Origin: an uncultured Candidatus Saccharibacteria bacterium
GTDB taxonomy: Bacteria; Patescibacteriota; Dojkabacteria; JAHIVN01
Length of the DNA: 12,779 bases
Direction of reading: 5' to 3'
Assembly: GCA_964572065.1 (NCBI GenBank)
Contig: CAZNER010000036.1
Location: 7,289-20,067 of the forward strand
Below are positions 1-12,779 of the stretch, piece by piece. The first letter of the stretch is position 1, and each line of letters begins with the position of its first letter. Below the pieces are notes generated by a model, which was not told where the DNA came from, did no database searches, and saw nothing but the letters and a program-made list of their open reading frames with translations. A program made the position numbers and the translations under genes.

Positions 1-28
1 TGGTCCCCAATATTTTTTAATATCCTCT

Positions 29-439
29 TTAGTAGTCTGAATCTTTGACATTTCCTATCTTCCTTACCTTTATCTTGGGTTCGTCTTCATATAAGTCTAC
101 TGACCATATCTCTCTTTTCCCATCTTTACTTTCATTTACAATATACTCATAGTTTTCACTAAAATGAACATCATCTTCATCTAACAATAATGTATCGTGA
201 TATCTCTTTTCTAATTCCTCACAAATCATTTTATATCTTTGTTGTATTTCTTTATACTCTTCAAAATTCTTTGGATTATTTAAATCATGATCCAACTGAT
301 AATCCCATAAGTCTCTCTCATATTTAGTCTTTAAGAATCTAAGCCCTGACATATCAGTATCACTTAGAAATACATCATATGCTGGTTGACTTTTCCAGGA
401 TTTGGAGCGGATGTTTTCTCTTGTAGTTTCACTCGACAT
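29..439 (-). CDS. hypothetical protein (136 aa, acidic)
   Basis: Complete ORF ATG..TAA. AGAGGA lies 9 nt upstream of the ATG at 439. No recognisable motifs. Confidence 0.55.
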   Translation of the reverse strand: MSSETTRENIRSKSWKSQPAYDVFLSDTDMSGLRFLKTKYERDLWDYQLDHDLNNPKNFEEYKEIQQRYKMICEELEKRYHDTLLLDEDDVHFSENYEYIVNESKDGKREIWSVDLYEDEPKIKVRKIGNVKDSDY

Positions 440-525
440 TTATAGAATCCTCTTCTCTCCATTTACTATTACATATTACCGAAAGGTTTATATAGTTTGT
501 GGTTGATATACATAAAAATATATCT
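440..525 (-). promoter_or_regulatory. 86-bp AT-rich intergenic gap, a possible promoter/RBS region for the 29..439 gene
   Basis: One of very few non-coding gaps in the window. On the minus strand it contains TTGAAG and several TATA-like hexamers, but no clean -35/17 nt/-10 arrangement could be fixed by eye. Confidence 0.2.
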
Positions 526-852
526 TCAATATAAGAAATCTCCAAGTCGAGTGTCATCCTTATCTGAATCCCAATTTAATCTTTTTCTATCTAGTGCCAT
601 TTTTGTAGCAGGAGATACTTTTATGGGTTTCACAGTATAGTTTGTTTTAGCATCTACATCAGTTACATATTCAATATACAATATTGATTCATGAGGTATA
701 AAATAATTATAATGACTTTCTTCATCTTCATCATTTACTATTATACCATTGTCTTCTGATGATACAATTACTCCTTCTATACTATCATCATTAGTTAGAA
801 ATATCTCTACGTATTTATTCATAAATTCCTTTGATTTATTAATTTTCATCAT
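526..852 (-). CDS. hypothetical protein (108 aa)
   Basis: Complete ORF starting with an ATGATG double start (MMKINK). The run of alternating hydrophobic residues and G/D (VEIFLTNDDSIEGVIVSSEDNGIIVND) is vaguely Sm-like. No firm call. Confidence 0.55.
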   Translation of the reverse strand: MMKINKSKEFMNKYVEIFLTNDDSIEGVIVSSEDNGIIVNDEDEESHYNYFIPHESILYIEYVTDVDAKTNYTVKPIKVSPATKMALDRKRLNWDSDKDDTRLGDFLY

Positions 853-991
853 CTACACCATATCCTTTTAATTCACATACAATAGAGTTAAGTTTCTTTT
901 TACTACTCCATCCAAGAGCATCTACAAATATATTCATTTGTTCTTCTGGATATATCTGTATGTGATTCTCATTTATTCTTATAACTTTCAT
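839..991 (-). CDS. small hypothetical protein (50 aa), found by hand
   Basis: ATG at 991-989 is preceded by AAGGTG 7 nt upstream. Translation is MKVIRINENHIQIYPEEQMNIFVDALGWSSKKKLNSIVCELKGYGVDDEN*. The stop overlaps the start of the 526..852 gene. The ORF is below the ORF-track size cutoff. Confidence 0.35.
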   Translation of the reverse strand: MKVIRINENHIQIYPEEQMNIFVDALGWSSKKKLNSIVCELKGYGVDDEN

Positions 992-1002
992 ATTAACACC
1001 TT

Positions 1003-1033
1003 AAAGAGAAAGGGTTTATAGCCCTTTTCTCTT
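1003..1033. other. imperfect inverted repeat (stem-loop) spanning the stop codon of the flotillin-like gene
   Basis: aagagaaaggg-tttata-gcccttttctctt forms a stem of about 11 bp with one bulge. On the plus strand it is followed by a T-rich run. On the minus strand, where the genes actually lie, it is followed by UAAGGUG, which is not U-rich. Terminator function is therefore doubtful. Confidence 0.3.
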
Positions 1034-2560
1034 ATTTTTATTTACTTTTCTCTGCATCTGTTCTATCTTATCTTTAGTTGTCTCTAGCTCTTTCATTTTT
1101 TCTATTTGAGTTTTCTCTTTCTTGGGTTGTTCCTTTGGTTTAGATTTGCTCTTTGGTTTTCTAGTTGGTTTGGGTTGCTCTTCTTGCATCTCCTTACCAA
1201 TTGATAACCCCTCAACAAATCCTAAATCGTTAGGCTTTGCTTTATTATGTAAGATAGCTTGTGCTGTATCAGGTGAACTCACATTAATACCCTCTATAAG
1301 TTTTCCCATATCAAAACCATCTCTAGCTCCATTACCTGCAAACACTCTCATGTCAGCATATTGTAGAGCCTCTGCTAAAGCTTTACCAACTTCAAGATCT
1401 TTGTTGACTAACAATTCAGCTATTAATGCTCTAATTGCATTATCATCAAATTTATTAAGAGCTTCTTGTAAGTCTTCTTTACCCTCTGCTTCTGCTTGGA
1501 GCTTCTTCAAGATAATCTCAGCTTCTGCTGTACCTGTTTCTCTTATGGGTGCAGCTTTTCCTATAGCTTTTTCTTGCTCTCTGATTTTATCTCCTTCTCC
1601 TTCTAGACGTTTTTGTTCTTTATTAATTGCTTCAACATCCTTTCTCTGTTCAGCATTTATTTTAGCTACAACTTTTTGTTGCTCCGCTAAAACTCTAGCT
1701 TTTTCTTTCTCAATCTCTTGGTTTTTAACTTTATCTACTTTAGTTACCTCAAGTTGTTCTGCTAGAGCAGCTTTTTCTTTCTCTGCTATGAGCTTATCTT
1801 TCTGTTGTTGTCTCTTAGCTACTTCTTCATCTCTTTCTATCTCTCGTTTTTGAGCAGATTCATCAGCTATTGCTTCCTTTAATCGAGCCATTTTCTTTTG
1901 CTCTGCATTTTTCTGTCTAGCTTCAGAGTTAATCTGTTCTTCTATAATTGAAGAAATATCAGATATAACATGAGATTCTTCTGTGTCCTTAAATTCAACC
2001 AATTCAATATCCTTGAGAACTAATCCCCAGTTGGTTATTGCTGACTGTAGAGGTTCTATGATTTCTTTAATGATTCCTTCTCGATCATTAATAATCTCTC
2101 TTACAGTTTTCTTGGTTGTTGAATCCCTAGTTGTTGCCTGAACAACTTTAGATACTTGCTCTGATAGTTCTTTCATGTCACCATTAAATCTTCGTGCAGC
2201 AACTACAGGATCTGTAATAGCTACATAAGCCATGATGTCACATAAGAACCTAGCTCTGTCTATATCAAATGCTTTGAAATCTGTAACATCTATTGGTAAG
2301 ATTTCCAGAGGCATTGGATGTACATGCATACCTATTCCAGGTATAAATCCAGGAATTTTAAAGTATGCGGCTTTTCCACCTGAAGAGTATTCTCCTTCAC
2401 CACTATGTTTTTTGTCTGAGCAAAATACTCTTGTCTTTCTACTTTGTACCACTACGTCAGCATAATTTGCTGGTGCAATCTTATACATACTAAATAAGAT
2501 TAATAAAAAACCAGCTATTATGGCAACAATTAATAGTGGCCATATTAGTATTTCTATCAT
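1016..2560 (-). CDS. flotillin-like SPFH/band-7 domain membrane protein (YqiK/FloT-like), 514 aa
   Basis: An N-terminal TM helix (IWPLLIVAIIAGFLLILFSMY) is followed by an SPFH-like core. After that comes a long region of E/A/K/Q heptad coiled coil (AEQKK..AKRQQQKDKLIAEKEKAALAEQ..) typical of flotillins. Next is a glycine-rich MRVFAGNGARDGFDMGKL segment, and the protein ends in a lysine-rich basic tail. Confidence 0.85.
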   Translation of the reverse strand: MIEILIWPLLIVAIIAGFLLILFSMYKIAPANYADVVVQSRKTRVFCSDKKHSGEGEYSSGGKAAYFKIPGFIPGIGMHVHPMPLEILPIDVTDFKAFDIDRARFLCDIMAYVAITDPVVAARRFNGDMKELSEQVSKVVQATTRDSTTKKTVREIINDREGIIKEIIEPLQSAITNWGLVLKDIELVEFKDTEESHVISDISSIIEEQINSEARQKNAEQKKMARLKEAIADESAQKREIERDEEVAKRQQQKDKLIAEKEKAALAEQLEVTKVDKVKNQEIEKEKARVLAEQQKVVAKINAEQRKDVEAINKEQKRLEGEGDKIREQEKAIGKAAPIRETGTAEAEIILKKLQAEAEGKEDLQEALNKFDDNAIRALIAELLVNKDLEVGKALAEALQYADMRVFAGNGARDGFDMGKLIEGINVSSPDTAQAILHNKAKPNDLGFVEGLSIGKEMQEEQPKPTRKPKSKSKPKEQPKKEKTQIEKMKELETTKDKIEQMQRKVNKNKRKGL

Positions 2561-2585
2561 TTTTTCTTTCTCCTATATTTTTTTT

Positions 2586-2813
2586 TTATTCTTTTTCTCT
2601 TGCACTTAATCTTATAGAACCATCATATATTTTGTTGGTTACCATTTGATTAAGTATTTTGGTTATAAGTCCATCTTCAGTTTTGACATATATATTCTTA
2701 CCATTGTCGATGTCCTTATATGCTTGCTCCATGTCTTCAATCGACTTGAAGACTATTTTATCTCCAGCTGTCTTCTCACCGAGAGACAACTCTTCTACAC
2801 TATATACTTCCAT
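2586..2813 (-). CDS. hypothetical protein (75 aa)
   Basis: Complete ORF immediately 5' of the flotillin-like gene. AGGAGAAA lies upstream of the flotillin start. No motifs. Confidence 0.5.
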   Translation of the reverse strand: MEVYSVEELSLGEKTAGDKIVFKSIEDMEQAYKDIDNGKNIYVKTEDGLITKILNQMVTNKIYDGSIRLSAREKE

Positions 2814-2815
2814 AA

Positions 2816-3022
2816 TTAATTTCTCCTTTTACCTGTTATTACATTTATTACTTCTATTGGTTTTTCCTTCATATATACATTACAATCATTCTTTAAACGT
2901 ATATTTGTTTTATTTCCAGATTTATTATTATATGTATAATTCTCTATAGACACTATATAGTTTATATTAATTATATCACTGTCTTCATTCTCTGTTATTA
3001 AAAAGTTCTTTACTTTCTTCAT
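2816..3022 (-). CDS. hypothetical protein (68 aa)
   Basis: Complete ORF. Its stop lies 2 nt upstream of the next start. Confidence 0.45.
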   Translation of the reverse strand: MKKVKNFLITENEDSDIININYIVSIENYTYNNKSGNKTNIRLKNDCNVYMKEKPIEVINVITGKRRN

Positions 3023-3035
3023 AAGATTTTCACTC

Positions 3036-3431
3036 CTATAAATCCCTTATCATTTTTGATTCTAATACGAAATCGTAATCCTTAGTAATATTTAATTCAA
3101 ATATGAACCTATCATCTTCATAAGATTGAACATTCTTTAATCTTTCTAGAATGATATTACAATCAAAGTCTTTTAAGTTCCCATAGTAAGATGCTCGGTA
3201 TCTAGTTCCATATTGATCAACTACATATTTGAATTTCATACCATCACACATTTGTAATACTTGTTGGACAAATGGATAGTATACATCTATTGAGCCTTTA
3301 TATATATTAAAGTGTATACCACCTAGAGTTTTACCATCATCTGTTTTAAATACACTACCCCATATAGTTACTTGATATTCTTCATTCTCTTGTTTATCAG
3401 TTAATCTTATCTCTCCAACTTTCTTTCTCAT
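3036..3431 (-). CDS. hypothetical protein (131 aa)
   Basis: Complete ORF, tightly packed against its neighbours. Confidence 0.6.
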   Translation of the reverse strand: MRKKVGEIRLTDKQENEEYQVTIWGSVFKTDDGKTLGGIHFNIYKGSIDVYYPFVQQVLQMCDGMKFKYVVDQYGTRYRASYYGNLKDFDCNIILERLKNVQSYEDDRFIFELNITKDYDFVLESKMIRDL

Positions 3432-3432
3432 A

Positions 3433-3765
3433 TTATAATCCTTCTATAAAGAAATCCTCATTATAATTCTCGATTATTCCCTTCATTATTTTAAAATGAT
3501 TTAGATAACAAGATTTATGTATAGCAAATACTTGAGGTAAAGTTATTATTTCTCCTTCATTATTTTTATCAGGCATTACTACTCTTAATATAAATGATAA
3601 ATTAGTTTCATCTGACATAACATCTTCAATTGTCATTAATTCTCCACAGATACCACAATATCTTTCATATCCTTCATCAGTTTTAATTTTATTTGCTCGT
3701 ATTATTTCAGGAAAATTCTGTCGTATACATGTATTTTTATTATATCCCTTTTTATTTATTTTCAT
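3433..3765 (-). CDS. hypothetical protein (110 aa), possible distant member of the small-paralog array
   Basis: Its N-terminus MKINKKGY and first 25 nt or so (ATGAAAATAAATAAAAAGGGATAT) resemble the MKFKKGDY starts of the array genes. The start overlaps the upstream stop as ATGA. An internal CGICGE motif is present. Confidence 0.6.
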   Translation of the reverse strand: MKINKKGYNKNTCIRQNFPEIIRANKIKTDEGYERYCGICGELMTIEDVMSDETNLSFILRVVMPDKNNEGEIITLPQVFAIHKSCYLNHFKIMKGIIENYNEDFFIEGL

Positions 3766-4058
3766 AGCATATCCAACATAAGCTCTTCTAGTTCCTCTTC
3801 AGGAACTTTTTCATCTAACATAAAAGCTTCAGGTCTAAACTCTTCTCCAAATACCATAAAATCTATATCCTTTTCTCCAGGAAATTTTTTACTCAAACCA
3901 ACATTTAAATATTTAACGGTTGCTGTTCTATATACACCATCTTCATATATAGTTGGTCTATTATAATTGTAATTTAATATGATATAATATAAAGCCTCAT
4001 GTTTATGATTTCTATCATATCTTCTTCTAATCTCACCAACTTTAGGCCAGTCTCTCAT
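3762..4058 (-). CDS. hypothetical protein (98 aa), array-related C-terminus
   Basis: Ends in EEELEELMLDML, which is related to the EEAMVELL ends of the array genes. ATGA overlaps are present at both ends. Confidence 0.6.
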   Translation of the reverse strand: MRDWPKVGEIRRRYDRNHKHEALYYIILNYNYNRPTIYEDGVYRTATVKYLNVGLSKKFPGEKDIDFMVFGEEFRPEAFMLDEKVPEEELEELMLDML

Positions 4059-4273
4059 AATAACTCTACCATAGCTTCTTCCTTTGTTATTTTCTCAAGA
4101 TTCCAATGTGTTTGTTTAAGAGCAGAATAATGTGAACCTTCATAACCATTTTCAGAAAATAATATTTCTATTTCATAATCTTCTCCTTTCTGTTCCACTA
4201 CTTTAACAATTTCAACTACATTTTTATACTCTTTACTAGTAGCTTTTATATAATCTCCAACTTGAAACTTCAT
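4055..4273 (-). CDS. small paralog-family protein A (72 aa)
   Basis: Starts MKFQVGDY and ends KEEAMVELL. ATGA overlaps are present at both ends. Confidence 0.65.
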   Translation of the reverse strand: MKFQVGDYIKATSKEYKNVVEIVKVVEQKGEDYEIEILFSENGYEGSHYSALKQTHWNLEKITKEEAMVELL

Positions 4274-4524
4274 AATAATTCCACCATAGCTTCATCTAAT
4301 GATATTATTTCTGATTCCTTTTCCATTGGACTATTAACCTGAAAATTATCTTCAATACATTCTTTATTATGAGTATAATTTAATTTCCTATATAAATAAA
4401 AGGGTTTCTTAGAAAGTTGCTTTAATTGGAAAGGACTTCTATATATGTCTTTTGGGCTAACTACATCAAATATATATCCAACTAGTTCGTGACATCTAAA
4501 GTAATCTCCCTTTTTAAATTTCAT
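4270..4524 (-). CDS. small paralog-family protein B (84 aa)
   Basis: Starts MKFKKGDY and ends DEAMVELL. Its SD (GGTGGA) lies inside the upstream C-terminal codons. Confidence 0.65.
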   Translation of the reverse strand: MKFKKGDYFRCHELVGYIFDVVSPKDIYRSPFQLKQLSKKPFYLYRKLNYTHNKECIEDNFQVNSPMEKESEIISLDEAMVELL

Positions 4525-4664
4525 AACTCCTCAACCATTACTTCATCATCATCCATTTCCTCTAAATACATACCCTTATTCTCATAATATTTAATTCTAT
4601 AATATTTACTGTTAACAATTACTATATCATTTTCTCTACCAATAATAGTCCCATTTCTATACAT
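4521..4664 (-). CDS. truncated paralog-family member C' (47 aa), found by hand
   Basis: Translation is MYRNGTIIGRENDIVIVNSKYYRIKYYENKGMYLEEMDDDEVMVEEL*. The start overlaps the upstream stop as TAATG, and the stop overlaps the downstream start as ATGA. It keeps the C-terminal motif but lacks the N-terminal GDY module. Confidence 0.4.
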   Translation of the reverse strand: MYRNGTIIGRENDIVIVNSKYYRIKYYENKGMYLEEMDDDEVMVEEL

Positions 4665-4885
4665 TATAATAATTCCACCATTAATTCATCCTTAGTTAAT
4701 TTTTCAACTTGTTCTTCCCAACAATGTATTTGGATATATTTATTATATATTGGAGCTAATATTAATTGATCAGGTAATACATCTTTACATATAATTTCAC
4801 ATATAGTTCCCTTTTTAACTGTTACATTATCTCTTATATTAGCTACTGAATATTTTAATCTTCTATATTTATTTATATCCTTCAT
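4664..4885 (-). CDS. small paralog-family protein D (73 aa)
   Basis: Ends KDELMVELL. The N-terminus is divergent (MKDINKYRR). Confidence 0.6.
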   Translation of the reverse strand: MKDINKYRRLKYSVANIRDNVTVKKGTICEIICKDVLPDQLILAPIYNKYIQIHCWEEQVEKLTKDELMVELL

Positions 4886-5124
4886 AGTAATCCTATCATA
4901 ACTTCATCCTTAGTAACTAATTTAACTTTCTCCTTGCTTGGTTCATAGAAACAAAAATCTTGTCTATAAACATTAGATATATTAAGGTGCTTACATATAT
5001 ACATCTTATAACCATATCTTTTATAAATAATATTTTCAACTATAACAAATAACCTTTTACCTATTTCACTTTGAAATCCATCCATATCTATAATCTCTAA
5101 ATAATCTCCAACTTTATACTTCAA
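4882..5124 (-). CDS. small paralog-family protein E (80 aa), apparent TTG start
   Basis: Starts with TTG-AAG-TAT (read as MKYKVGDY) and ends KDEVMIGLL. The TTG overlaps the upstream TGA as TTGA, a degenerate form of the ATGA junction. Confidence 0.55.
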   Translation of the reverse strand: MKYKVGDYLEIIDMDGFQSEIGKRLFVIVENIIYKRYGYKMYICKHLNISNVYRQDFCFYEPSKEKVKLVTKDEVMIGLL

Positions 5125-5348
5125 AGTAACTCCACCATAGCCTCCTCTTTACTTAGTTTCTTTAAACCTCTATTATCATATATCTCTACAGATCCTGATG
5201 CTTCACCAGTTATATATAATACAGTATAAGGATATTCATGGTTATGAACTATCTCCTTTATTATACCTATATTACCTATTTGATTTTTTAGATATACATA
5301 ATCGTAATGTTTAACTATTTTTACGTAATCTCCCTTTTTAAATTTCAT
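5121..5348 (-). CDS. small paralog-family protein F (75 aa)
   Basis: Starts MKFKKGDYVKIVK and ends KEEAMVELL. Confidence 0.65.
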   Translation of the reverse strand: MKFKKGDYVKIVKHYDYVYLKNQIGNIGIIKEIVHNHEYPYTVLYITGEASGSVEIYDNRGLKKLSKEEAMVELL

Positions 5349-5506
5349 AATAAATATACCATCAATTCATCTTCGTTTAATGGACCTATTATATCTAGTT
5401 CTAATACAGCATCAGGACTAACTACTATTTTGTAACCATGTATTTTATCATCGTATTTCTTAACATACATACCTATAGCATCCATATAAGGTAAATCTTG
5501 ATACAT
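5345..5506 (-). CDS. truncated paralog-family member G' (53 aa), found by hand
   Basis: Translation is MYQDLPYMDAIGMYVKKYDDKIHGYKIVVSPDAVLELDIIGPLNEDELMVYLL*. Its stop overlaps the ATG of the 5121..5348 gene as ATGA. It is the first gene of the array, after a 79-bp gap. Confidence 0.4.
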   Translation of the reverse strand: MYQDLPYMDAIGMYVKKYDDKIHGYKIVVSPDAVLELDIIGPLNEDELMVYLL

Positions 5507-5585
5507 AGTTAATTTAAATACCCCTATACCATCAGAATAATACCATTCATCTTAATCTAAATTTGATAATATATTTAGAGATTTA

Positions 5586-6179
5586 TTAATGTATTTTAAA
5601 TTTGATGTCTCCTTTTCCTTCATAACACCACATACAATCATTACATTTTATAGAATTACCCTTACCCTTAGTACATTCTCTAATCTTTGAGACATCATCT
5701 TTATGATTACCTATCTTATTTTTACCATCATCTATTACATAAGCTTTTAATCCCGTTTCAGGTACACCCTTACTATCTGGCCATATTGTCCAATACCTTA
5801 CTGTATTATCAGGTAAATTGCTCCAGTCTAAATCATACATCTGAGTATATATTAAGAACTTCTTTTCAGGAAATTTATTACATATCTTTATCCACTTATT
5901 AAGATACTCTTGACTATAGAAATCTCCTGATTCATGTATCCTTATATATTCAGATTTAATTTTGCTTATCTTCTCTGTAGCTTTTTTAACAAATGATTTC
6001 TTTTTAGTATCTTCATAGTTTCTTCTTCTACTAGGTAATACTTGCTTATAACACATCTCAGCTTTTTTAGCGTAACAATATTTCTCACAGTTATCAGTTC
6101 TACCAGGACAAGTTTGAACTGCTGGTAAACTGAATGTTGGGATATTCATTCTTATATTGCCAGGACTTATATATACCAT
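5586..6179 (-). CDS. Cys-rich hypothetical protein (197 aa), possible metal/Fe-S binding
   Basis: The N-terminus carries a C-x6-C-x3-C-Y-A cluster (TCPGRTDNCEKYCYAKK), and the C-terminus carries a second cluster (C..CNDCMWC). An RIHESGDF segment is also present. There is a weak resemblance to the three-Cys N-terminal motif of phage Gp37/Gp68 (DUF5131)-type proteins. This is not confirmable without a search. Confidence 0.6.
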   Translation of the reverse strand: MVYISPGNIRMNIPTFSLPAVQTCPGRTDNCEKYCYAKKAEMCYKQVLPSRRRNYEDTKKKSFVKKATEKISKIKSEYIRIHESGDFYSQEYLNKWIKICNKFPEKKFLIYTQMYDLDWSNLPDNTVRYWTIWPDSKGVPETGLKAYVIDDGKNKIGNHKDDVSKIRECTKGKGNSIKCNDCMWCYEGKGDIKFKIH

Positions 6180-6185
6180 ATAATA

Positions 6186-6317
6186 TTACTCCTCATATTC
6201 ATTCATTTCCTTTACTAACTTTTTACATTTCTCACTAACTACCTGAGATAATGCAAGGAATTCAATTGGTTTTAATTCTTCTATTATCTCATTCCAATAG
6301 TGTTTATTCCTTTTCAT
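6186..6317 (-). CDS. possible small ORF (43 aa), found by hand
   Basis: Translation is MKRNKHYWNEIIEELKPIEFLALSQVVSEKCKKLVKEMNEYEE*. It fills the gap between the 6304..6633 and 5586..6179 genes, and its start is nested in the last codons of the upstream gene. Confidence 0.2.
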   Translation of the reverse strand: MKRNKHYWNEIIEELKPIEFLALSQVVSEKCKKLVKEMNEYEE

Positions 6318-6633
6318 TATGTATTCCCTCCATCATATCTAATTCTGCTTTACCTTGCATTACTATAAGGAAAACTTTAAGATACAAATCTAATTTAACT
6401 TTATATTTCTTATGAACCTTTTCTATTATCTTAATATAATCTGGTTCTATCCCTCTATGTATTAAACTATCAGCTCTCTTCTTTACTTCTTCTATTAAAA
6501 GTTTATCATAATTCATTACATCATTCTGTAATTTCTCTATAGCTGAAGGCATATCATCGTAGTTAAGTAATTGTTTAACTTTCTTATTAGTATCTCTAAT
6601 TATATTATTTTTATCCTTCATACTAACTACCAT
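6304..6633 (-). CDS. hypothetical protein (109 aa)
   Basis: Complete ORF. A second in-frame ATG at 6621 lies just after the upstream stop. Confidence 0.55.
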   Translation of the reverse strand: MVVSMKDKNNIIRDTNKKVKQLLNYDDMPSAIEKLQNDVMNYDKLLIEEVKKRADSLIHRGIEPDYIKIIEKVHKKYKVKLDLYLKVFLIVMQGKAELDMMEGIHNEKE

Positions 6634-6814
6634 CTCTTATTATACCTGATATCAATTCTAATTCTACATTCTTCTTTTTAGCATAACAAATCCAGCAAAG
6701 AAAGTAATTATATGGATATGGACAACCATTAACTATCTTTTCTCCATCACATTTTATATTAAACCATTCATCTGATATTCTCCCACATTCTTTGCATTTG
6801 GTTAAATTAATCAT
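6623..6814 (-). CDS. small zinc-ribbon-like protein (63 aa)
   Basis: Contains CKEC ... CDGEKIVNGC ... CWIC cysteine pairs. Confidence 0.5.
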   Translation of the reverse strand: MINLTKCKECGRISDEWFNIKCDGEKIVNGCPYPYNYFLCWICYAKKKNVELELISGIIRDGS

Positions 6815-6825
6815 TCCATCACTTT

Positions 6826-7008
6826 TTATATATCCTTATACTCACTACCATGTTCTATTATTTCTATCTTTGTTTCTCTATAAACTTTCTCTAACCATAC
6901 ACAACCACAATCATTACAATAAAAGTCTGTATCTACAGAGTCATCACAATAATTGTCTTCTGTATCATTGTAGTCAGTATCCATACTACCGCATTCAGGA
7001 CATTCCAT
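6826..7008 (-). CDS. small zinc-ribbon-like protein (60 aa)
   Basis: Contains CPEC ... CNDCGC. It is preceded by TGGGTGATTTAAATG, which serves as both SD and start. Confidence 0.5.
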   Translation of the reverse strand: MECPECGSMDTDYNDTEDNYCDDSVDTDFYCNDCGCVWLEKVYRETKIEIIEHGSEYKDI

Positions 7009-7146
7009 TTAAATCACCCACAATTCAATTGCTACCCAAATTAATATAGTTGCTAATACAACACCTGCTAACACAAATGCTCCTTTCATGTTTGTTTCTC
7101 TTAATTCTTCAAGTTCTTCTATGGACATATCCCATTTGGATTTCAT
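7009..7146 (-). CDS. small single-TM membrane peptide (45 aa), found by hand
   Basis: Translation is MKSKWDMSIEELEELRETNMKGAFVLAGVVLATILIWVAIELWVI*. AGGGTGATTTAAAAATG provides the SD and start. Its stop TAA abuts the next ATG as TAAATG. Confidence 0.4.
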   Translation of the reverse strand: MKSKWDMSIEELEELRETNMKGAFVLAGVVLATILIWVAIELWVI

Positions 7147-7153
7147 TTTTAAA

Positions 7154-7534
7154 TCACCCTAATATTTTCTCTATTAAATTTAGTCTTTTAATTGGTTTTA
7201 AATCTCTAGCAAACGCTACTTTACTTGATTCCTTTATTAAACAGTCATATTTCTTCATGGGGATAACCTTTATATTAACTGATCTATCTACAAAACATAT
7301 TTTTCCATTACTTATATTAGATTGCATTTTATATTTACCATTCTCTTGTTTAACTTTATTGAAATATAATACCTCTCTCTTATGTTTATTTGTTAATCCA
7401 TCATGAACTTCCTTATGACATTTATCACATAGGGGTATTAATTTATTCTTCAAAGGTTTCAAATGTTTAGGTATTGCATGATGTTTCTGTACCTTATTTT
7501 CACTACCACATCTCCAACATTTAGCTTTAACCAT
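7154..7534 (-). CDS. HNH endonuclease (126 aa)
   Basis: The N-terminal CWRCGS ... HHAIPKH ... N ... LCDKCHKEVH forms a canonical HNH/zinc motif. Confidence 0.8.
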   Translation of the reverse strand: MVKAKCWRCGSENKVQKHHAIPKHLKPLKNKLIPLCDKCHKEVHDGLTNKHKREVLYFNKVKQENGKYKMQSNISNGKICFVDRSVNIKVIPMKKYDCLIKESSKVAFARDLKPIKRLNLIEKILG

Positions 7535-7535
7535 T

Positions 7536-8081
7536 TTAAATCACTTTATATTCTCCATATTTATTTAATCTACAATACTTACCCTTAATAGCTCTATATT
7601 GTTTCAATACTGAATTAGTAGATACAGGTGTAAATTGATTAACATCTACTCCAACGTTAATGATAGGAATGCTTGGATTACTCTTTAGAATCTTAAACTT
7701 CCATTTCTCATGAATATGACCACAGATTACAAAGTCACAGATAGGTAACACTTCTGGTGGATGATGTTGTACAAATACATCCTTACCACCAAAGAACATC
7801 ATAGCTTTATCAATATAGGTTTTAATACCATTATTCATATCATGGTTTCCTCTAATATGAACAATGTCTCCATTTAACATATTCTCAAATCTTTTACCAT
7901 TAAGTTGTCCTTTAAAAGCAAAGTCACCTACATGATATACTAAATCATCTGGAGATACTACACTATTCCATCTCTTAACAAGTTCCCTATTCATATGGTT
8001 ATTGTCTTTGAATGGTCTACTAGTATACTTAATAATATTATCATGATCAAAGTGACAATCAGCTGTAAAAAATATTTTCAT
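7536..8081 (-). CDS. calcineurin-like metallophosphoesterase (181 aa)
   Basis: Carries the metallophosphoesterase signature motifs in order: DCHFDHD, GDFAFKG, GNHD, HHPP and CGHIHE. Confidence 0.85.
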   Translation of the reverse strand: MKIFFTADCHFDHDNIIKYTSRPFKDNNHMNRELVKRWNSVVSPDDLVYHVGDFAFKGQLNGKRFENMLNGDIVHIRGNHDMNNGIKTYIDKAMMFFGGKDVFVQHHPPEVLPICDFVICGHIHEKWKFKILKSNPSIPIINVGVDVNQFTPVSTNSVLKQYRAIKGKYCRLNKYGEYKVI

Positions 8082-8276
8082 TTAATCACCATACTTTTCT
8101 TTATTCTTTATTATATCTATAGCAAAATCTAAACCATCAGCTATACCTTGTGAATAAGATGCTGAACCTATAAAGTTACCATTCCTAATAGATTCTTCTT
8201 CATAATGTTTTTTTAATCTCTTTAATTCTTTAAGACATCCTTTCATACATATTTTCCTTTGTTTATCTTTAACCAA
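8082..8276 (-). CDS. hypothetical protein (64 aa as tracked, likely 54 aa from the ATG at 8246)
   Basis: The tracked start at 8276 is TTG. An in-frame ATG at 8246-8244 overlaps the upstream TGA as ATGA, the junction style used throughout this window, and gives MKGCLKELKRLKKHY... Confidence 0.5.
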   Translation of the reverse strand: MVKDKQRKICMKGCLKELKRLKKHYEEESIRNGNFIGSASYSQGIADGLDFAIDIIKNKEKYGD

Positions 8277-8509
8277 ATAGCTTGAAAATCTTTATTGTCT
8301 TTAGCTTCACCAAATCTAAGTAAGCCTTTATCATATACTTCCTTTATCTCTTGGTATCTTTCTTTACTACTACCTGGATTGGGATTAGCTCCACACTCTG
8401 GACACTTAGTAGTTGGTACTCCATCATGAGCATCCATTGAACCCATAGGAGCTATATGATGCCATGACCAGAATCCGTATCCTAAACAAGCTTTACATTT
8501 CTTTTTCAT
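8243..8509 (-). CDS. zinc-ribbon-like protein (88 aa)
   Basis: Contains CKAC ... CPEC cysteine pairs. Confidence 0.55.
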   Translation of the reverse strand: MKKKCKACLGYGFWSWHHIAPMGSMDAHDGVPTTKCPECGANPNPGSSKERYQEIKEVYDKGLLRFGEAKDNKDFQAIWLKINKGKYV

Positions 8510-8523
8510 TTATATCATATCCA

Positions 8524-8709
8524 TTAATCAAAGAATAATAATTTCCCAGTATTTAATTTATGTATAAAATTCTCAACATCACACTTAAAGTAATTAGTTT
8601 TACCATCCTTACCTACTTCTACTGTTTGTCCTGTCATAAACTCACAAAATAATTCCCAGTTTTCTTCTCCTATTTTATCTAGAACTTGTTGTTTATTCAT
8701 TTCTATCAC
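8524..8709 (-). CDS. hypothetical protein (61 aa, or 58 aa from the ATG at 8700)
   Basis: The tracked start is GTG at 8709. The internal ATG gives MNKQQVL... Confidence 0.5.
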   Translation of the reverse strand: MIEMNKQQVLDKIGEENWELFCEFMTGQTVEVGKDGKTNYFKCDVENFIHKLNTGKLLFFD

Positions 8710-8793
8710 TTATTATTCTCTTACTACCAATAAAACTTCTTCTAGATTTTATTAATTGTCTATTTATACCGTAAGTTGATTTAATTCTTTTTT

Positions 8794-9276
8794 TCATTTT
8801 AAATTATCCCCTAAATCATCTTCCATATATAATTCATCTTTATCTTTCCTATCTTTAAATACTTTCTCTATAGATTTATCCCAACATTTCTTACATACTT
8901 GTCCTTCATCATCTGCAAGAACAGCATCACAATTTCTACAGTGTCTTGGTCTATTAATTAAATCCTCTGACCATCTATGAACATCAAACTCGTGTTCTCC
9001 ATTTGGAGATATTATTCTAAATACTGTTCCTCTATTATGTTCTACCCATACTAAACTAGTACAGTTACTTATACAATCAACTTCAAATACATTTAAGAAT
9101 CTCTTAATAAAATCTATATCTATTACATAACACATACCCTGACAAGTTCCAAAATAATCAAAGTTACCCTTCATAACTAATTGACCGTGATATTCAAATC
9201 CTATATCAGGATTCTCAAATCTAGCTAACTCCATCTCTGTATTCTCTTTCTTATATTTACGCTTTGGTGCTTTCAC
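8794..9276 (-). CDS. Cys-containing hypothetical protein (160 aa)
   Basis: A GTG start overlaps the upstream TGA as GTGA, with AGGAGA 11 nt upstream. The C-terminus carries HCRNC ... CKKC. Confidence 0.6.
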   Translation of the reverse strand: MKAPKRKYKKENTEMELARFENPDIGFEYHGQLVMKGNFDYFGTCQGMCYVIDIDFIKRFLNVFEVDCISNCTSLVWVEHNRGTVFRIISPNGEHEFDVHRWSEDLINRPRHCRNCDAVLADDEGQVCKKCWDKSIEKVFKDRKDKDELYMEDDLGDNLK

Positions 9277-9491
9277 TCTAATCTATCTCCTGAATATTTC
9301 TTGAATATATTTACCATAGCAATATATATTTCAAGTAAATCTCCTTCATCAAAGTTACCCCAATTATCATGTTGTCTCCACAAATCAAATAAAGCATCTC
9401 TTATATCTTTTTGTATTTTGTCATCTATTATAGATATCCCTTTTTCAAATTCTTGATTCGTCATTCTATAAATTCTCCTATTGAGTTGCAA
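9273..9491 (-). CDS. hypothetical protein (72 aa as tracked, probable start at 9464 giving 63 aa)
   Basis: The second ATG (MTNQEF) has TAGGAGA 7 nt upstream, and it overlaps the stop of the hand-found 9461..9607 ORF as ATGA. Confidence 0.55.
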   Translation of the reverse strand: MQLNRRIYRMTNQEFEKGISIIDDKIQKDIRDALFDLWRQHDNWGNFDEGDLLEIYIAMVNIFKKYSGDRLE

Positions 9492-9607
9492 GGTTTATGA
9501 TATTTGCTATCACATTTACAAGGTTCTCCTATTAGGTGCATAGGTGTTACAGATATAAACCCCCACATAGCTCCACATTTCTTACACTTAGTCCAATATA
9601 AACCCAT
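9461..9607 (-). CDS. small zinc-ribbon-like protein (48 aa), found by hand
   Basis: Translation is MGLYWTKCKKCGAMWGFISVTPMHLIGEPCKCDSKYHKPCNSIGEFIE*. TAATG overlaps the upstream stop, and ATGA overlaps the downstream start. Confidence 0.4.
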   Translation of the reverse strand: MGLYWTKCKKCGAMWGFISVTPMHLIGEPCKCDSKYHKPCNSIGEFIE

Positions 9608-9849
9608 TATATCACATCTCCAAAGCAATACTCAAAGAAACTAACTTTATGATTTATTTTCATACCTTCATAGAAATCACTATAATGTTTTGGTTGCTCT
9701 TCCATTAACTTTGCTGGATTATCTTTATATTTATTATAAAATTCAACAGCTGATTTGACATCGTTTTTAGTAAAATAAATGTGATTATCAATTGGGTCAT
9801 CTTCATCTACTCTTTCATCTATAATTTTCTCTCTTAAAGGTTCACACAT
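9607..9849 (-). CDS. hypothetical protein (80 aa)
   Basis: Complete ORF that overlaps the 3' end of the methyltransferase gene by 16 nt. Confidence 0.55.
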   Translation of the reverse strand: MCEPLREKIIDERVDEDDPIDNHIYFTKNDVKSAVEFYNKYKDNPAKLMEEQPKHYSDFYEGMKINHKVSFFEYCFGDVI

Positions 9850-11339
9850 AATTTCTCTCCTATAGCTTTTATTACATTCACCGTAACAGCATTACCTAAT
9901 TGTCGATATCTTTGTGTATCAGATATTAATATATCAGGTAGATTTCCTATTACAGTTTTCTTTATACCATAATCTTTCATAATTTTCTTACAATGTTCAC
10001 AACAATAATAATGTCCAATAAGATGCAGGGTTCCACCTTTAGCATTCTTACCAGCTTTCTTACAAGCTGAGACTTCTGCATGTTCTACTTGTCCACATAT
10101 CTCTTTACAGAGTTCGTAGCCTGTACCCGTCTTAAAACCAATCCTCGGGCATTTCTGTTGTGGTGTTAGACATTCATTGTAACCAAACCAATACTTACCA
10201 TTATTCTCTATGATAGCAACAACTGTTTGTTTAACACATCTTCCCTTAAAATTCATAATTGGGGTTCCATACTTAGTCCAATCATCTGGGAATCCTTGAA
10301 GTCTTTCACATTCAACGGGAGTTAATCTTCTTAGTTTATCATATTGATTACAGATATCCCAAGAGTGTCTATCTACGCTACTTCTTCCACCACTCCTTAC
10401 TGTCTTGGATATTATAACTCCATCTCTATCTTGGTTATTTAAAGTAAAGGTTGCTTCATCAGGCTCTTTAACCCATCTACCTTCTTGTCTTGGTTTTCTA
10501 TCGGGTGTCTTTACTGATCTAGCTACACCTTGATTCATACCAACATCAAGACAATAAGCTTCGTCTTCCTTACCTATAGTTCCATAACCACCAGGATAGG
10601 ATTTACCCTCTTCTCTAGCTTTAACCATACAAGGTCTATCTAATCCTCTCTTTTGTGTATTCATAACTATAGGTACATTGTGTCCACCTGTTCCCATATT
10701 TTGGGTTAAGGTTGGACTACCTTCATGTTCTCTTATTTCATTTGCTCTATGGGCTTTGTATGTTTTTCCTTTAGATACTTCTTGAATCTTTCTTGCATCT
10801 TCTCTGAAAGGTAATACTTGCTGTCTACTTCCTCCTCTAAGATATCCGATAATGAAGACACGTTCTCGGTTCTGGGGTACTCCGAAAAATTTGCTGTTAA
10901 GTACCATCCATTCAACTCTATACCCCAATTCATCCAACGTTTGAAGGATGACTTTGAAAGTTTCCCCTTGTTTGTGATTGAGTAACCCCTTGACGTTTTC
11001 AAGGAATACAATCTTAGGTTTTTTAGCTTTAATAATTCTTGCAATTTCAAAAAAGAGAGTTCCTCGGGTATCTTTAAAACCTCTCCGGTGTCCAGCAATT
11101 GAGAATGCTTGACAAGGAAATCCTCCACAGAGCATATCAAAGTCTGGTATTTCTTCTGGTTTGATTTTTGTGATATCTGTTGGTTCATAACATTCACCAT
11201 AATTTTTATTATATACTGATACTGCATACTTATCTATGTCACAGTACCATACAAATTTATATTTATCCGATGCTTCTTGTAGTCCCTTACGGAATCCACC
11301 TATACCACCAAATAAATCTGCTACTCTTATCTCATCCAT
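9834..11339 (-). CDS. DNA (cytosine-5)-methyltransferase with an inserted dCMP/cytidine-deaminase-like zinc domain (501 aa)
   Basis: The C5-MTase motifs are all present: I FGGIGG (residues 10-15), IV GFPCQAFS (catalytic C76), VI ENV (113-115), VIII QNRERVF (156-162), IX RRLTPVECERLQGFPDDW (337-354) and X QLGNAVTVNVIKAIG (480-494). Between motifs IX and X, at residues 366-465 (nt 9945-10244), sits VVAIIENNGKYWFGYNEC..C..C..CGQVEHAEVSAC..GGTLHLIGHYYCCEHCKKIMKDYGIKKTVIG. This matches the ComEB/dCMP-deaminase pattern GYNG ... HAE ... PCxxC ... GIKKVVY. Confidence 0.9.
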   Translation of the reverse strand: MDEIRVADLFGGIGGFRKGLQEASDKYKFVWYCDIDKYAVSVYNKNYGECYEPTDITKIKPEEIPDFDMLCGGFPCQAFSIAGHRRGFKDTRGTLFFEIARIIKAKKPKIVFLENVKGLLNHKQGETFKVILQTLDELGYRVEWMVLNSKFFGVPQNRERVFIIGYLRGGSRQQVLPFREDARKIQEVSKGKTYKAHRANEIREHEGSPTLTQNMGTGGHNVPIVMNTQKRGLDRPCMVKAREEGKSYPGGYGTIGKEDEAYCLDVGMNQGVARSVKTPDRKPRQEGRWVKEPDEATFTLNNQDRDGVIISKTVRSGGRSSVDRHSWDICNQYDKLRRLTPVECERLQGFPDDWTKYGTPIMNFKGRCVKQTVVAIIENNGKYWFGYNECLTPQQKCPRIGFKTGTGYELCKEICGQVEHAEVSACKKAGKNAKGGTLHLIGHYYCCEHCKKIMKDYGIKKTVIGNLPDILISDTQRYRQLGNAVTVNVIKAIGEKLCVNL

Positions 11340-11346
11340 CTAATCA

Positions 11347-11448
11347 CTAACATCTCATTTTTAACATTATAATATCAGCAACTCTCCATATCATTACTGT
11401 TGATATTACTGCTATCAATAATCTTTGTCCTATTTCAAATTCTATCAT
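11347..11448 (-). CDS. possible small single-TM peptide (33 aa), found by hand
   Basis: Translation is MIEFEIGQRLLIAVISTVMIWRVADIIMLKMRC*. GGGTGATAATATG provides the SD and start. Confidence 0.3.
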   Translation of the reverse strand: MIEFEIGQRLLIAVISTVMIWRVADIIMLKMRC

Positions 11449-11452
11449 ATTA

Positions 11453-11602
11453 TCACCCTAAACATTTGGTTATATTTCCAATAAGCCAACCAGTTGCAAG
11501 TGCCATTAAGAACATAACAACATAAAATCTATGTAACTTTTTATATTCTTGTAATGTCATTGTTGCAAATTCTATTCCACTTTCTCCTTTAACTACTTTC
11601 AT
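11453..11602 (-). CDS. possible small membrane peptide (49 aa), found by hand
   Basis: Translation is MKVVKGESGIEFATMTLQEYKKLHRFYVVMFLMALATGWLIGNITKCLG*. AGGAGT lies 7 nt upstream. The start is 1 nt after the NTase stop. Confidence 0.35.
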   Translation of the reverse strand: MKVVKGESGIEFATMTLQEYKKLHRFYVVMFLMALATGWLIGNITKCLG

Positions 11603-11603
11603 C

Positions 11604-12374
11604 TTATACTCCTAATACTTTATAAACATACTCTTGTAGTTTATGAGTCTTATTAAATTTCTTATTCATTATCTCTATATGTTCATCTAAGAAATCTTCT
11701 ATGTAACTCTCAAATTCATGTATGTGGGATATTATATCCTTTTCTCCACCTTGTTCCTTTATCTCTATAACTTCCCAGAGTTTATCCTTAACATCTTTAG
11801 GTAAGGATACTTTCTCTACGGTTTCTTTAAATCTTATAGGTGGTACTTCAAGATATTGTTCTACGTATTTAGCATTAACTAATCCTCTCATGGCATAAAG
11901 ATACTTCTTATGTGTCATTAGCTTTTCTGATTTGAGGTAATTAAGATAGTTATTCTTACACATACTCTTATAATGATAATATAATGATATTGGATTAAAG
12001 TGTTTATTCATTATCTTTTTTAAATGCTCCTTACTCCACCCATCTTCAGTATATATTATGTCACAGTTAAGCCACTCTATTACTGAAGGATTACTACTGT
12101 TCAGGAGTCTTATGAATTTGTATAAATCAAATCCAACAAAATCATATATTCCATCTGTCTTATCAATAACATCTCTTGGAGGATGAATTTTCAGATAATC
12201 TTTTTTATCTCTTACATACACAAACCTAATGTCATAGTCGGAGTCCTTACTCTCAATCCTCCAAGCTCTGCTACCTGATTCTACAGCAAATAATATTCTT
12301 ATATTATACTTTTGCTCCAAATCACCTAACGTATTTATAATATCATAGTCTATATCTATACTCCTTTCTGACAT
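11604..12374 (-). CDS. Pol-beta-superfamily nucleotidyltransferase (COG3541-like), 256 aa
   Basis: The N-terminal AVESGSRAWRIESKDSDYDIRFVY is the hG[GS]x9-13 D-x-D nucleotidyltransferase signature. It is characteristic of the predicted-NTase family that is often linked to RNA-repair and tRNA-related loci. Confidence 0.75.
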   Translation of the reverse strand: MSERSIDIDYDIINTLGDLEQKYNIRILFAVESGSRAWRIESKDSDYDIRFVYVRDKKDYLKIHPPRDVIDKTDGIYDFVGFDLYKFIRLLNSSNPSVIEWLNCDIIYTEDGWSKEHLKKIMNKHFNPISLYYHYKSMCKNNYLNYLKSEKLMTHKKYLYAMRGLVNAKYVEQYLEVPPIRFKETVEKVSLPKDVKDKLWEVIEIKEQGGEKDIISHIHEFESYIEDFLDEHIEIMNKKFNKTHKLQEYVYKVLGV

Positions 12375-12548
12375 CTATAGCTCCTCTATCATTCTTCTAT
12401 CCTTATAACATTTGTAACATTCAAACCAAACTTTTCTAGGGTTATTTAAACTCCTCCATGTATATCCTAATGTCTTATATTTTTTACATGTACTACATTT
12501 TTCTGGTGGATATACTATTGTTTTCTCTCTATTATTATTCATAATCAT
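12375..12548 (-). CDS. small zinc-ribbon-like protein (57 aa), found by hand
   Basis: Translation is MIMNNNREKTIVYPPEKCSTCKKYKTLGYTWRSLNNPRKVWFECYKCYKDRRMIEEL*. Its stop TAG abuts the NTase ATG as TAGATG. The start lies only 6 nt from the tRNA 3' end, so the true start may be the second ATG at 12542. Confidence 0.4.
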   Translation of the reverse strand: MIMNNNREKTIVYPPEKCSTCKKYKTLGYTWRSLNNPRKVWFECYKCYKDRRMIEEL

Positions 12549-12553
12549 ACTAA

Positions 12554-12627
12554 TGGCGAGGGTTGGATTTGAACCAACGTACCACGGGTTATGAACCCAT
12601 TGCCTGTTTCCTCTAGACTACCTCGCT
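12554..12627 (-). tRNA. tRNA-Met (anticodon CAU), with some initiator-like features
   Basis: The cloverleaf was read from the reverse complement. The acceptor stem is AGCGAGG/CCTCGCC, with A1 and C72 unpaired. The D stem is GTCT/AGGC. The anticodon stem is ATGGG/CCCGT, with three consecutive G-C pairs, and the anticodon loop is TTCATAA. The variable loop is GGTAC. The T arm is GTTGG-TTCAAAT-CCAAC. The discriminator is A, and CCA is not encoded. Confidence 0.8.
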
Positions 12628-12779
12628 ATCTCTTAAATTTTTTTCAAAGGTTTTAATTTCATCATTAATTAATATTGCCATAAATATTTTTTCTTTTTCA
12701 TAATCTATAACATGATAGATATATTTTATATTAATTGTTACCATCTAATAATCCCTTACTATATTACAAATAACTAAGC

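Follow-up and report, generated by a model that had tools for sequence, protein, structure and literature searches.

Architecture of the gene

The window analysed here is the whole 12,779-nt stretch of contig CAZNER010000036.1 (assembly GCA_964572065.1), of which positions 9,608 to 11,339 are shown above. It has ~30% G+C, its short same-strand open reading frames (ORFs) are densely packed on the minus strand, and it looks like the early region of a large phage. Our subject is the ORF at positions 9834-11339, which encodes a 501-amino-acid protein in which a small domain of the deoxycytidine monophosphate (dCMP) deaminase type is nested between motifs IX and X of a cytosine-5 (C5) DNA methyltransferase. 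The identical 501-amino-acid protein is encoded on five contigs (the three contigs listed come from three different samples), and ORF 9834-11339 is therefore not an assembly artefact; a chimeric assembly or a frameshift is also out in view of two relatives, 63% and 41% identical, that are likewise in-frame. The parts of the gene are as follows.

9834-11339, minus strand: whole ORF, 501 amino acids plus stop, ATG start; C5 DNA methyltransferase with nested deaminase domain (ORF calls, profile matches)
10269-11339, minus strand: methyltransferase part 1, residues 1-357; catalytic domain, target-recognition domain (TRD) and motif IX (PF00145 over residues 4-360, identity to M.HhaI, predicted local distance difference test score (pLDDT) of ~90 for the catalytic domain)
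11292-11318, minus strand: motif I, DLFGGIGGF, residues 8-16, binding of S-adenosylmethionine (AdoMet) (alignment, coordinates)
11100-11123, minus strand: motif IV, GFPCQAFS, residues 73-80, with catalytic Cys76 (invariant in the alignment)
10992-11000, minus strand: motif VI, ENV, residues 114-116 (alignment, coordinates)
10860-10874, minus strand: motif VIII, QNRER, residues 156-160 (alignment, coordinates)
10350-10814, minus strand: variable or target-recognition region, residues 176-330 (variable alignment block, low-confidence model)
10275-10334, minus strand: motif IX, LRRLTPVECERLQGFPDDWT, residues 336-355 (alignment, junction comparison, coordinates)
9930-10268, minus strand: mini domain of the dCMP deaminase type with its linkers, residues 358-470 (PF00383, absence from the closest methyltransferases, free-standing relatives, pLDDT 85-98, Foldseek)
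10095-10238, minus strand: cysteine cluster C368, C390, C397 (followed by P-R), C411 and C415; predicted to form a second zinc site, structural in role, and a cap located between strand 2 and the HAE helix (family conservation)
10074-10082, minus strand: H420-A-E422, predicted catalytic zinc ligand and proton-shuttle glutamate ((near-)invariant in the family, N-terminus of predicted helix 421-433)
9990-10001, minus strand: C447-E-H-C450, predicted CxxC zinc ligands (invariant, N-terminus of predicted helix 448-456)
9870-9923, minus strand: motif X, SDTQRYRQLGNAVTVNVI, residues 473-490; the C-terminal helix of the methyltransferase, resuming after the insert (alignment, coordinates)

Judged by its sequence, the outer part is a C5 DNA methyltransferase that is intact and has kept every catalytic motif. 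It matched PF00145 over residues 4-360 and in a second stretch (E=3.1e-87, 293.5 bits; cut-off 22), and TIGR00675 'dcm' with E=1.4e-97 (327.3 bits; cut-off 100.65). The best match among solved structures was M.HhaI, with 46% identity over ~180 aligned columns of the catalytic domain, and the closest relatives of the 501-amino-acid protein are ordinary phage methyltransferases of 330-430 amino acids. Motifs I, IV, VI, VIII, IX and X were all present and invariant against the homologues in our alignment, and each motif position was verified against the nucleotide coordinates. The Dcm-type methyltransferase with motifs I, IV, VI, VIII, TRD, IX and X that the first-pass annotation of this DNA had read from the letters is thus borne out by both profiles and by the alignment.

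The inserted mini deaminase

In the closest methyltransferases that have no insert (P0003-P0006, 61-66% identical), motif IX leads to motif X through 8-12 linker residues. At the same place, the alignment showed ~110 extra residues in the window protein and in two relatives, P0002 (63% identical) and P0019 (41%). PF00383 was matched with 25.8 bits in the whole protein and with 29.7 bits (E=5.9e-7) by the isolated insert, a narrow margin over the cut-off of 25, and the match begins at profile position 22-23. When compared with the PDB, a profile of the insert family found the T4 dCMP deaminase Cd (1vq2, E=2.4e-6), the dCMP deaminase of S. mutans (2hvv, E=3.1e-6) and human DCTD, and the alignment of 2hvv with the insert family extends through the cysteine cluster.

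AlphaFold modelled the deaminase domain with pLDDT 85-98 inside the full-length protein and 86.8 for the insert alone. The insert models run strand-strand-(short helix)-helix(HAE)-strand-helix(CxxC)-strand, with four core strands. In Foldseek searches, the insert model matched dCMP deaminases and RibD in the PDB (TM-score up to 0.57) and phage dCMP deaminases in BFVD (TM-score up to 0.65). Taken together, the profiles and the models predict that the insert is a catalytically intact mini domain of the dCMP deaminase lineage, in which the HAE...CxxC zinc site and the Cys-rich cap are preserved. The same profile, fold and insert-less-relative evidence upholds the initial proposal of a deaminase domain between motifs IX and X, and the HAE and the CxxC (C447-E-H-C450) do lie at nt 10074-10082 and nt 9990-10001. 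As for its borders, the core that had been marked out (residues 366-465, nt 9945-10244) agrees with our delimitation, the full extent being wider (residues 358-470, nt 9930-10268).

According to Iyer et al. 2011 (PMC3239186), the features of the dCMP deaminase/ComE clade include a zinc-binding insert that separates strand 2 from the HAE helix, and the zinc-supported cap is described there as limiting active-site access to a soluble base. Of the clade features, the mini family keeps the cysteine before strand 1 (C368), the zinc-binding insert and, mostly, NA after HxE. Specifically, the window protein has SA at the latter position (HAEVSA), P0019 has HAEVEA and most family members have HAEVNA. 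The predicted ligands of the second site are all cysteines in the insert (C390, C397, C411 and C415), compared with two cysteines and a histidine in the clade list. Helix 1, helix 4, strand 5 and the tyrosine after strand 4 are missing, and we have therefore filed the mini family as a truncated, divergent offshoot of the clade and not as a canonical member. In canonical dCMP deaminases, the region of helix 4 and strand 5 carries the allosteric site for the triphosphates dCTP and dTTP. With helix 4 and strand 5 missing, the mini family is therefore without the region of that site. The domain had been called complete in the first-pass annotation, which is right in relation to its own free-standing family and wrong in relation to canonical dCMP deaminases, whose helix 1 and helix 4/strand 5 it does not have.

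Other origins of the insert were considered and set aside. It has no intein junction residues and is homologous end to end to free-standing deaminases, which excludes an intein or mobile-element insertion. Recently acquired foreign DNA is excluded by the G+C content of third codon positions (GC3), which is 0.23 in the insert and 0.15-0.27 in the methyltransferase parts, the same as in the neighbouring genes. Given the same GC3 values, nothing supported the early idea that the AT-rich context reflects a C-to-T pressure. Profiles of toxin-type deaminases gave only sub-threshold matches (Pput2613 and MafB19, 12-25 bits), the contexts of the family are those of phage replication and modification, and no immunity-like partner was seen in them; the insert is therefore not classed with the DNA deaminases of the polymorphic-toxin type (DddA, SsdA or MafB19).

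A free-standing family and its recurrent nesting

A profile of the three inserts retrieved 56 proteins in a word-indexed search, nearly all of them 101-125 amino acids long and up to 65% identical to the window insert. These free-standing relatives start right at M..GKCAKQ, just before strand 1, and end just past the last strand (strand 4), and on this comparison the insert is a whole copy of a member of the free-standing mini-deaminase family. When representatives were searched exhaustively, 786 clusters reached E<=1e-3 and, of these, 428 reached E<=1e-10. The family signature is C-x-K ... G-x-N-x-C ... C-P-R ... G-Y-x-x-C-x-x-x-C-x-Q-x-x-H-A-E ... G-H-x-x-C-C-x-x-C. No family in PHROGs represents the insert, and the standalone proteins are annotated by the Joint Genome Institute (JGI) as deoxycytidylate deaminase. 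Distant standalone homologues occur in cultured Xanthomonas and Stenotrophomonas phages, where the neighbourhoods were uninformative.

The best 150 family representatives include ten long proteins in which a C5 methyltransferase carries the deaminase between motifs IX and X, and five short ones that consist of motif IX, the deaminase and motif X. A search seeded with a GC-rich fused protein found ten further nested clusters among its 120 best relatives, including P0403 (611 amino acids), which is present on 58 contigs. Many of these ten have no precomputed PF00383 label, and their source name, where there is any, is only DNA cytosine methyltransferase; no cluster carries a descriptive name. 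The nested junctions belong to two methyltransferase subfamilies, one AT-rich (of the 'SDTQRYRQLGNAVT' type) and one GC-rich (of the 'DGPRYKALGNSMAVPV' type). In both, the domain begins a few residues past RLQGFPDxW/YT and stops a few residues short of motif X. HAE, CxxC, PCQ and ENV are kept in 13/13 full-length nested proteins, and HAE and CxxC in 5/5 short forms. We thus count at least 23 nested protein clusters in the two subfamilies, at the same IX/X hinge site, all with HAE and CxxC and with PCQ wherever the catalytic domain is present. The catalytic His, the Glu and both Cys are conserved in the nested copies across ~40% sequence divergence, and no plain N- or C-terminal fusion of methyltransferase and deaminase was seen among the family members inspected. 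The architecture is widespread, both in uncultured phages and on prophage-like contigs.

In a neighbour-joining tree of 202 domains (built from a short domain and without bootstrap), the nested copies formed 10 groups interleaved with standalone proteins, and the window insert was nearer to standalone proteins than to the insert of P0002, its nearest fused relative. Both observations suggest repeated exchange between free and nested states. A single ancient insertion is not supported by this tree, which is only indicative.

The short proteins of motif IX, deaminase and motif X (P0183, P0206, P0253, P0255 and P0275) are 180-271 amino acids long, and P0206 retains a motif-I-like start, 'MRYLSL'. 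Either split methyltransferases, of which these would be the beta-type subunits, or decay of a methyltransferase that has kept its deaminase could explain them. In P0019, the N-terminal extension (residues 1-110; TERRTLEAKKIRSKMMKQGKDWSPRRGKELVPRED) closely resembles a segment within the variable/TRD region of P0002 and P0009, a likeness that hints at duplication or permutation of a TRD element.

Gene neighbourhoods and fusion partners

A scan of IMG/VR, which does not contain the window's own contig, yielded 49 loci (45 once near-duplicates were collapsed), and these were analysed with our own ORF calling, hidden Markov model searches and Pfam checks. At two of the 45 loci, the deaminase is nested in a C5 methyltransferase, at 15 it abuts or overlaps one (on either side, once convergently), and at two the methyltransferase lies one gene away; elsewhere within ~6 kb on either side, only two other C5 methyltransferase genes were found. 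In the GTDB genome collection, 6/6 loci were nested (one) or abutting (five). These six are contigs of metagenome-assembled genomes of Alphaproteobacteria, Paraburkholderia, Parvibaculum and Planctomycetota. In both collections together, the deaminase is nested in or next to a C5 methyltransferase gene at 25/51 loci, with abutting or overlapping pairs at 20/51.

Adenine and N4 methylases were adjacent in only 1-2 loci, so that the link is to cytosine-5 methylation and not to AdoMet enzymes in general. Since the deaminase is repeatedly a neighbour of, or nested in, a C5 methyltransferase and also belongs to a triad with the endonuclease Vsr, the mini-deaminase family is evolutionarily coupled to C5 DNA methylation.

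Other partners come from nucleotide metabolism and from DNA processing. MazG and MazZ-like (dGTP_diPhyd_N) pyrophosphohydrolases were found as five neighbours and one fusion (P0286), Mom at two loci and ThyX at one; no thymidylate synthase of the ThyA type was seen as a neighbour at family loci. Vsr is the partner in one fusion (P0192) and in one triad of deaminase, Vsr and methyltransferase (L038), and endonuclease VII in one fusion (P0266). In the triad (L038:3120-5009), the mini deaminase, a Vsr-like endonuclease and a C5 methyltransferase are three consecutive genes on the same strand. At another locus (L047), a pair of Vsr and methyltransferase lies 4 kb from the deaminase. The partner in P0286 is a MazZ-like dATP/dGTP diphosphohydrolase domain, and in P0190 the mini deaminase is fused to a Cys-rich 'zf-like' domain. 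The linker and the deaminase domain are almost identical in P0266 and P0286, which therefore suggest that domains were swapped onto a shared C-terminal half.

Individual loci add some detail. The fused gene of P0019 (L006:4394-7549 and L008) is preceded by a TSCPD-domain gene and has an overlapping stop/start with a downstream Nuc_deoxyri_tr2 (DNPH1/Rcl-like) gene, followed by Fic; gp32, RecA/UvsX-like and SbcC-like genes lie around it. On a 253-kb jumbo-phage contig (L009:4072-10051, the same as L016), a standalone mini deaminase stands between a glycosyltransferase and an AdoMet methyltransferase of the small-molecule type, with an epimerase and a TylF-type methyltransferase nearby and no C5 DNA methylase. 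At L020:2505-5990, a 1162-amino-acid helicase with an intein (Hom_end_hint and LAGLIDADG) is directly upstream of a standalone mini deaminase. Within a set of five loci (L041, L053, L037, L050 and L029), several methyltransferase ORFs that abut the deaminase matched the methyltransferase profile via the catalytic half only, and two downstream deaminase ORFs have C-terminal extensions of 85-100 amino acids. Splitting or frameshifting of the nested architecture could have produced the ORFs of this set.

Other genes and composition of the window

The genes around the methyltransferase gene that could be named are the following.

11604-12374, minus strand: RlaP-type nucleotidyltransferase, directly upstream of the methyltransferase gene (phrog_14344, E=3e-66)
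7536-8081, minus strand: Metallophos_2 phosphoesterase
7154-7534, minus strand: weak HNH match
5586-6179, minus strand: GP88-family protein
1016-2560, minus strand: SPFH/Band-7 protein, 514 amino acids

No thymidylate synthase or other gene of nucleotide metabolism or synthesis was found in the window or in its outward extensions, which held only small early genes. Every long ORF of the window (1-12779) is on the minus strand, and many genes encode 50-130 amino acids and have overlapping stop and start codons, as is phage-early-like. GC skew is below zero in all 1-kb bins (-0.21 to -0.52). Palindromes were counted on both strands and compared with a second-order Markov model: GATC is strongly depleted (10 observed vs. 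44.8 expected), and GTAC (17 observed vs. 31 expected) and CATG (32 observed vs. 49 expected) are mildly so. The depletion of GATC may reflect avoidance of a GATC-specific restriction system. As a guide to the target of the methyltransferase, the palindrome counts were discarded, given that they yielded only this GATC depletion, which is uninformative for a C5 enzyme.

Possible functions

We favour, tentatively and at somewhat less than an even chance, a bifunctional phage enzyme whose deaminase would turn 5-methyl-dCMP or dCMP into thymidine or deoxyuridine monophosphate (dTMP or dUMP), and so clear and salvage the nucleotides of 5-methylcytosine (5mC). One phage polypeptide would then combine C5 methylation with the deamination of cytosine-type mononucleotides, chiefly 5-methyl-dCMP and also dCMP. 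The methyltransferase would write 5mC into phage or host DNA, and DNA turnover or the breakdown of host DNA would release 5mC nucleotides; their deamination would block re-phosphorylation and re-incorporation at random positions, and the nucleotides would be salvaged as thymidylate for an AT-rich genome. There are two precedents. In human cells, deamination of 5-methyl-dCMP is said to yield dTMP and so to keep 5mC from being re-incorporated at random; the 5-methylated triphosphate 5m-dCTP is readily accepted by DNA polymerases (PMC9594043). In phages, Yang et al. (bioRxiv 10.1101/2024.12.05.627091) described 'dCMP deaminases', such as mSCD-B5 (154 amino acids), whose genes are linked to those of ThyA-like dCMP methylases. 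These mSCD enzymes prefer 5mC over C on mononucleotides and on single-stranded DNA, and were proposed to make dTMP from 5-methyl-dCMP (bioRxiv 10.1101/2024.12.05.627091). The evidence for our family leans to nucleotide-level action linked to 5mC, because the cap typical of nucleotide deaminases is retained, because MazG/MazZ, ThyX and DNPH1-like enzymes are among the partners, and because of the mSCD and human precedents.

Several points weigh against this clearance of nucleotides. Sanitation of the pool does not readily explain why the nesting should always be at one place in the hinge. This constancy hints that geometry relative to the methyltransferase or to DNA matters. About half of the family loci have no methyltransferase nearby. 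With helix 1, helix 4, strand 5 and the tyrosine missing, the substrate pocket may be more open than in the canonical enzymes, and the window protein has SA in place of the 'NA' signature that follows HAE. The argument from the cap is not decisive, given that mSCD enzymes deaminate single-stranded DNA in vitro despite their mononucleotide-type fold. Finally, the fusions to Vsr and endonuclease VII point toward DNA.

These last points bring up a deaminase that acts on DNA under the guidance of the methyltransferase, turning 5mC into T, or unmethylated C into U, at the bound site or next to it, as a site-directed C-to-T editor or mismatch generator. We regard it as less probable, and as the main rival. 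Its possible uses include damage to host or competitor DNA, removal of 5mC together with Vsr, and permanent erasure of restriction sites. It would account for the constant hinge site of the nesting in both methyltransferase subfamilies, where the linkers are short, and for the lack of simple terminal fusions; it agrees with the family's fusions to enzymes that act on DNA, namely endonuclease VII and the T:G mismatch endonuclease Vsr, with the existence of a deaminase-Vsr-methyltransferase triad, with the mini fold being without peripheral elements of the canonical nucleotide enzymes, and with the known deamination of 5mC in single-stranded DNA by phage enzymes of the dCMP deaminase fold. However, the zinc-supported cap typical of mononucleotide deaminases is kept, one flipped base would be contested by both active sites, and the phage would mutate its own genome if its own methylated sites were deaminated; the family also pairs with nucleotide enzymes (MazG/MazZ, ThyX and DNPH1-like), and no immunity-type partner gene was seen in its contexts. 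A more elaborate version, which we consider doubtful, is a sequence-directed natural base editor in which the TRD positions the mini deaminase, with a standalone deaminase and methyltransferase (with or without Vsr) acting likewise in trans. Such an editor could serve a deamination-armed 'restriction-modification', the erasure of 5mC (by deaminase, Vsr nick and resynthesis) or the permanent deletion of phage restriction sites.

The simplest view of the domain, that of an ordinary dCMP deaminase supplying dUMP for dTTP synthesis in an AT-rich phage, has no special relation to 5mC and explains adjacency by co-expression in an early module. The dCMP deaminases are indeed the closest relatives in both sequence and structure, the JGI annotation of the standalone proteins says the same, and MazG/MazZ and ThyX neighbours would suit a path from dCTP through dCMP and dUMP to dTMP. 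We nonetheless consider it unlikely, as co-location in a module fails to explain abutting or overlapping pairs at 20/51 loci, 6/6 loci in the second collection and repeated nesting in one loop, and as the canonical phage enzymes co-localise with thymidylate synthase, PRA-PH and DNA polymerase, with DNA methylase outside the top five. A deaminase of the adenine of S-adenosylhomocysteine (SAH) or AdoMet, relieving product inhibition of the methyltransferase, would suit a site by motif X and the cofactor pocket, the insert immediately preceding motif X, and at one jumbo-phage locus a standalone gene does lie between a glycosyltransferase and small-molecule AdoMet methyltransferases. Against it, the association is C5-specific (N6/N4 adenine methylases are very common in phages and adjacent in only 1-2 loci), the sequence falls in the dCMP deaminase clade and not in the TadA/adenosine clade, and Vsr, MazZ and ThyX are partners unrelated to SAH, all of which makes it very improbable. 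Domains inserted in a hinge can also be regulatory, and canonical dCMP deaminases are allosteric binders of nucleotides; the insert might likewise be a non-catalytic zinc module, which either braces the methyltransferase hinge structurally or senses nucleotides and regulates it. We give this just as slight a chance, considering that no nested copy examined has lost the catalytic His, the Glu or either Cys, at ~40% sequence divergence, and that the part missing from the mini domain is exactly the allosteric region (helix 4/strand 5) of the canonical enzymes.

Significance and comparison with known systems

Both component enzyme families are well known, and it is their combination that appears to be new. 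In targeted text searches of the searchable literature, we found no description of a nested or fused methyltransferase and deaminase, of any natural polypeptide in which the enzyme that writes 5mC is combined with a cytosine-type deaminase, or of the conserved two-gene module behind this architecture. A methyltransferase-nested deaminase is not mentioned by Iyer et al. 2011 (PMC3239186), and the MetaGPA paper (PMC8670742) makes no link between deaminases and DNA methyltransferases. The initial remark that no such architecture had been described therefore stands as far as this literature goes, with the correction that the window protein is not a one-off: at least 23 clusters are nested and about half of the family loci are near a C5 methyltransferase. 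From this recurrence, in two methyltransferase subfamilies, we argue that phages have dedicated means of handling their own 5mC. Should the deaminase act on nucleotides, viruses would for the first time be seen to have an equivalent of the 5-methyl-dCMP clearance that animal cells perform, and the recent discovery of 5mC-selective deaminases in phages would be extended to those phages whose DNA is methylated post-replicatively. Should its substrate be DNA, nature would provide a sequence-targeted C-to-T editor as small as ~100 residues, of clear interest for methylome sequencing and base editing. In databases, the members of the mini family are named only deoxycytidylate deaminase or nothing, and no tested member was found in the searchable literature.

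Compared with the mSCD enzymes, our family is alike in consisting of phage enzymes of the dCMP deaminase family that are linked to an enzyme making 5mC, and in its association with MazG-type pyrophosphohydrolases. It differs in that mSCD-B5 is a full-size single domain, linked to a ThyA-like dCMP methylase in phages that replace all C, whereas the mini family is shorter, of a distinct lineage, and linked to or nested in post-replicative C5 DNA methyltransferases (PF00145), with one ThyX neighbour. The co-localised domains listed for mSCD are thymidylate synthase, PRA-PH and DNA polymerase, not DNA methylase, and the preprint mentions neither fusions nor any link to DNA methyltransferases (bioRxiv 10.1101/2024.12.05.627091). 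With canonical dCMP deaminases (T4 Cd, 1VQ2; S. mutans, 2HVV/5C2O; human DCTD, 2W4L), the insert shares the HAE and CxxC zinc site, the cysteine before strand 1 and the Cys-rich insert, but the mini domain has only ~100 residues and CCxxC instead of PCxxC.

The methyltransferase part has the hallmarks of type II C5 methyltransferases such as M.HhaI and M.HaeIII (motifs I, IV PCQ, VI ENV, VIII QNRER, IX and X), and differs from them in the extra folded hinge domain of ~110 residues between motifs IX and X. Split or circularly permuted C5 methyltransferases (e.g., M.AquI alpha/beta, and the alpha/beta subunits of phage MM1) illustrate that the chain can be broken downstream of the TRD. The short proteins P0183, P0253, P0255 and P0275 resemble beta-type subunits of this kind; the split enzymes, however, have a chain break but no extra catalytic domain. 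The Dcm-Vsr pairs are similar in organisation, with an accessory gene that handles the consequences of 5mC tightly beside a C5 methyltransferase, and Vsr itself partners the mini deaminase (P0192 and L038). In our case, the accessory activity is a predicted deaminase instead of a repair nuclease and, in the window, it lies inside the methyltransferase polypeptide.

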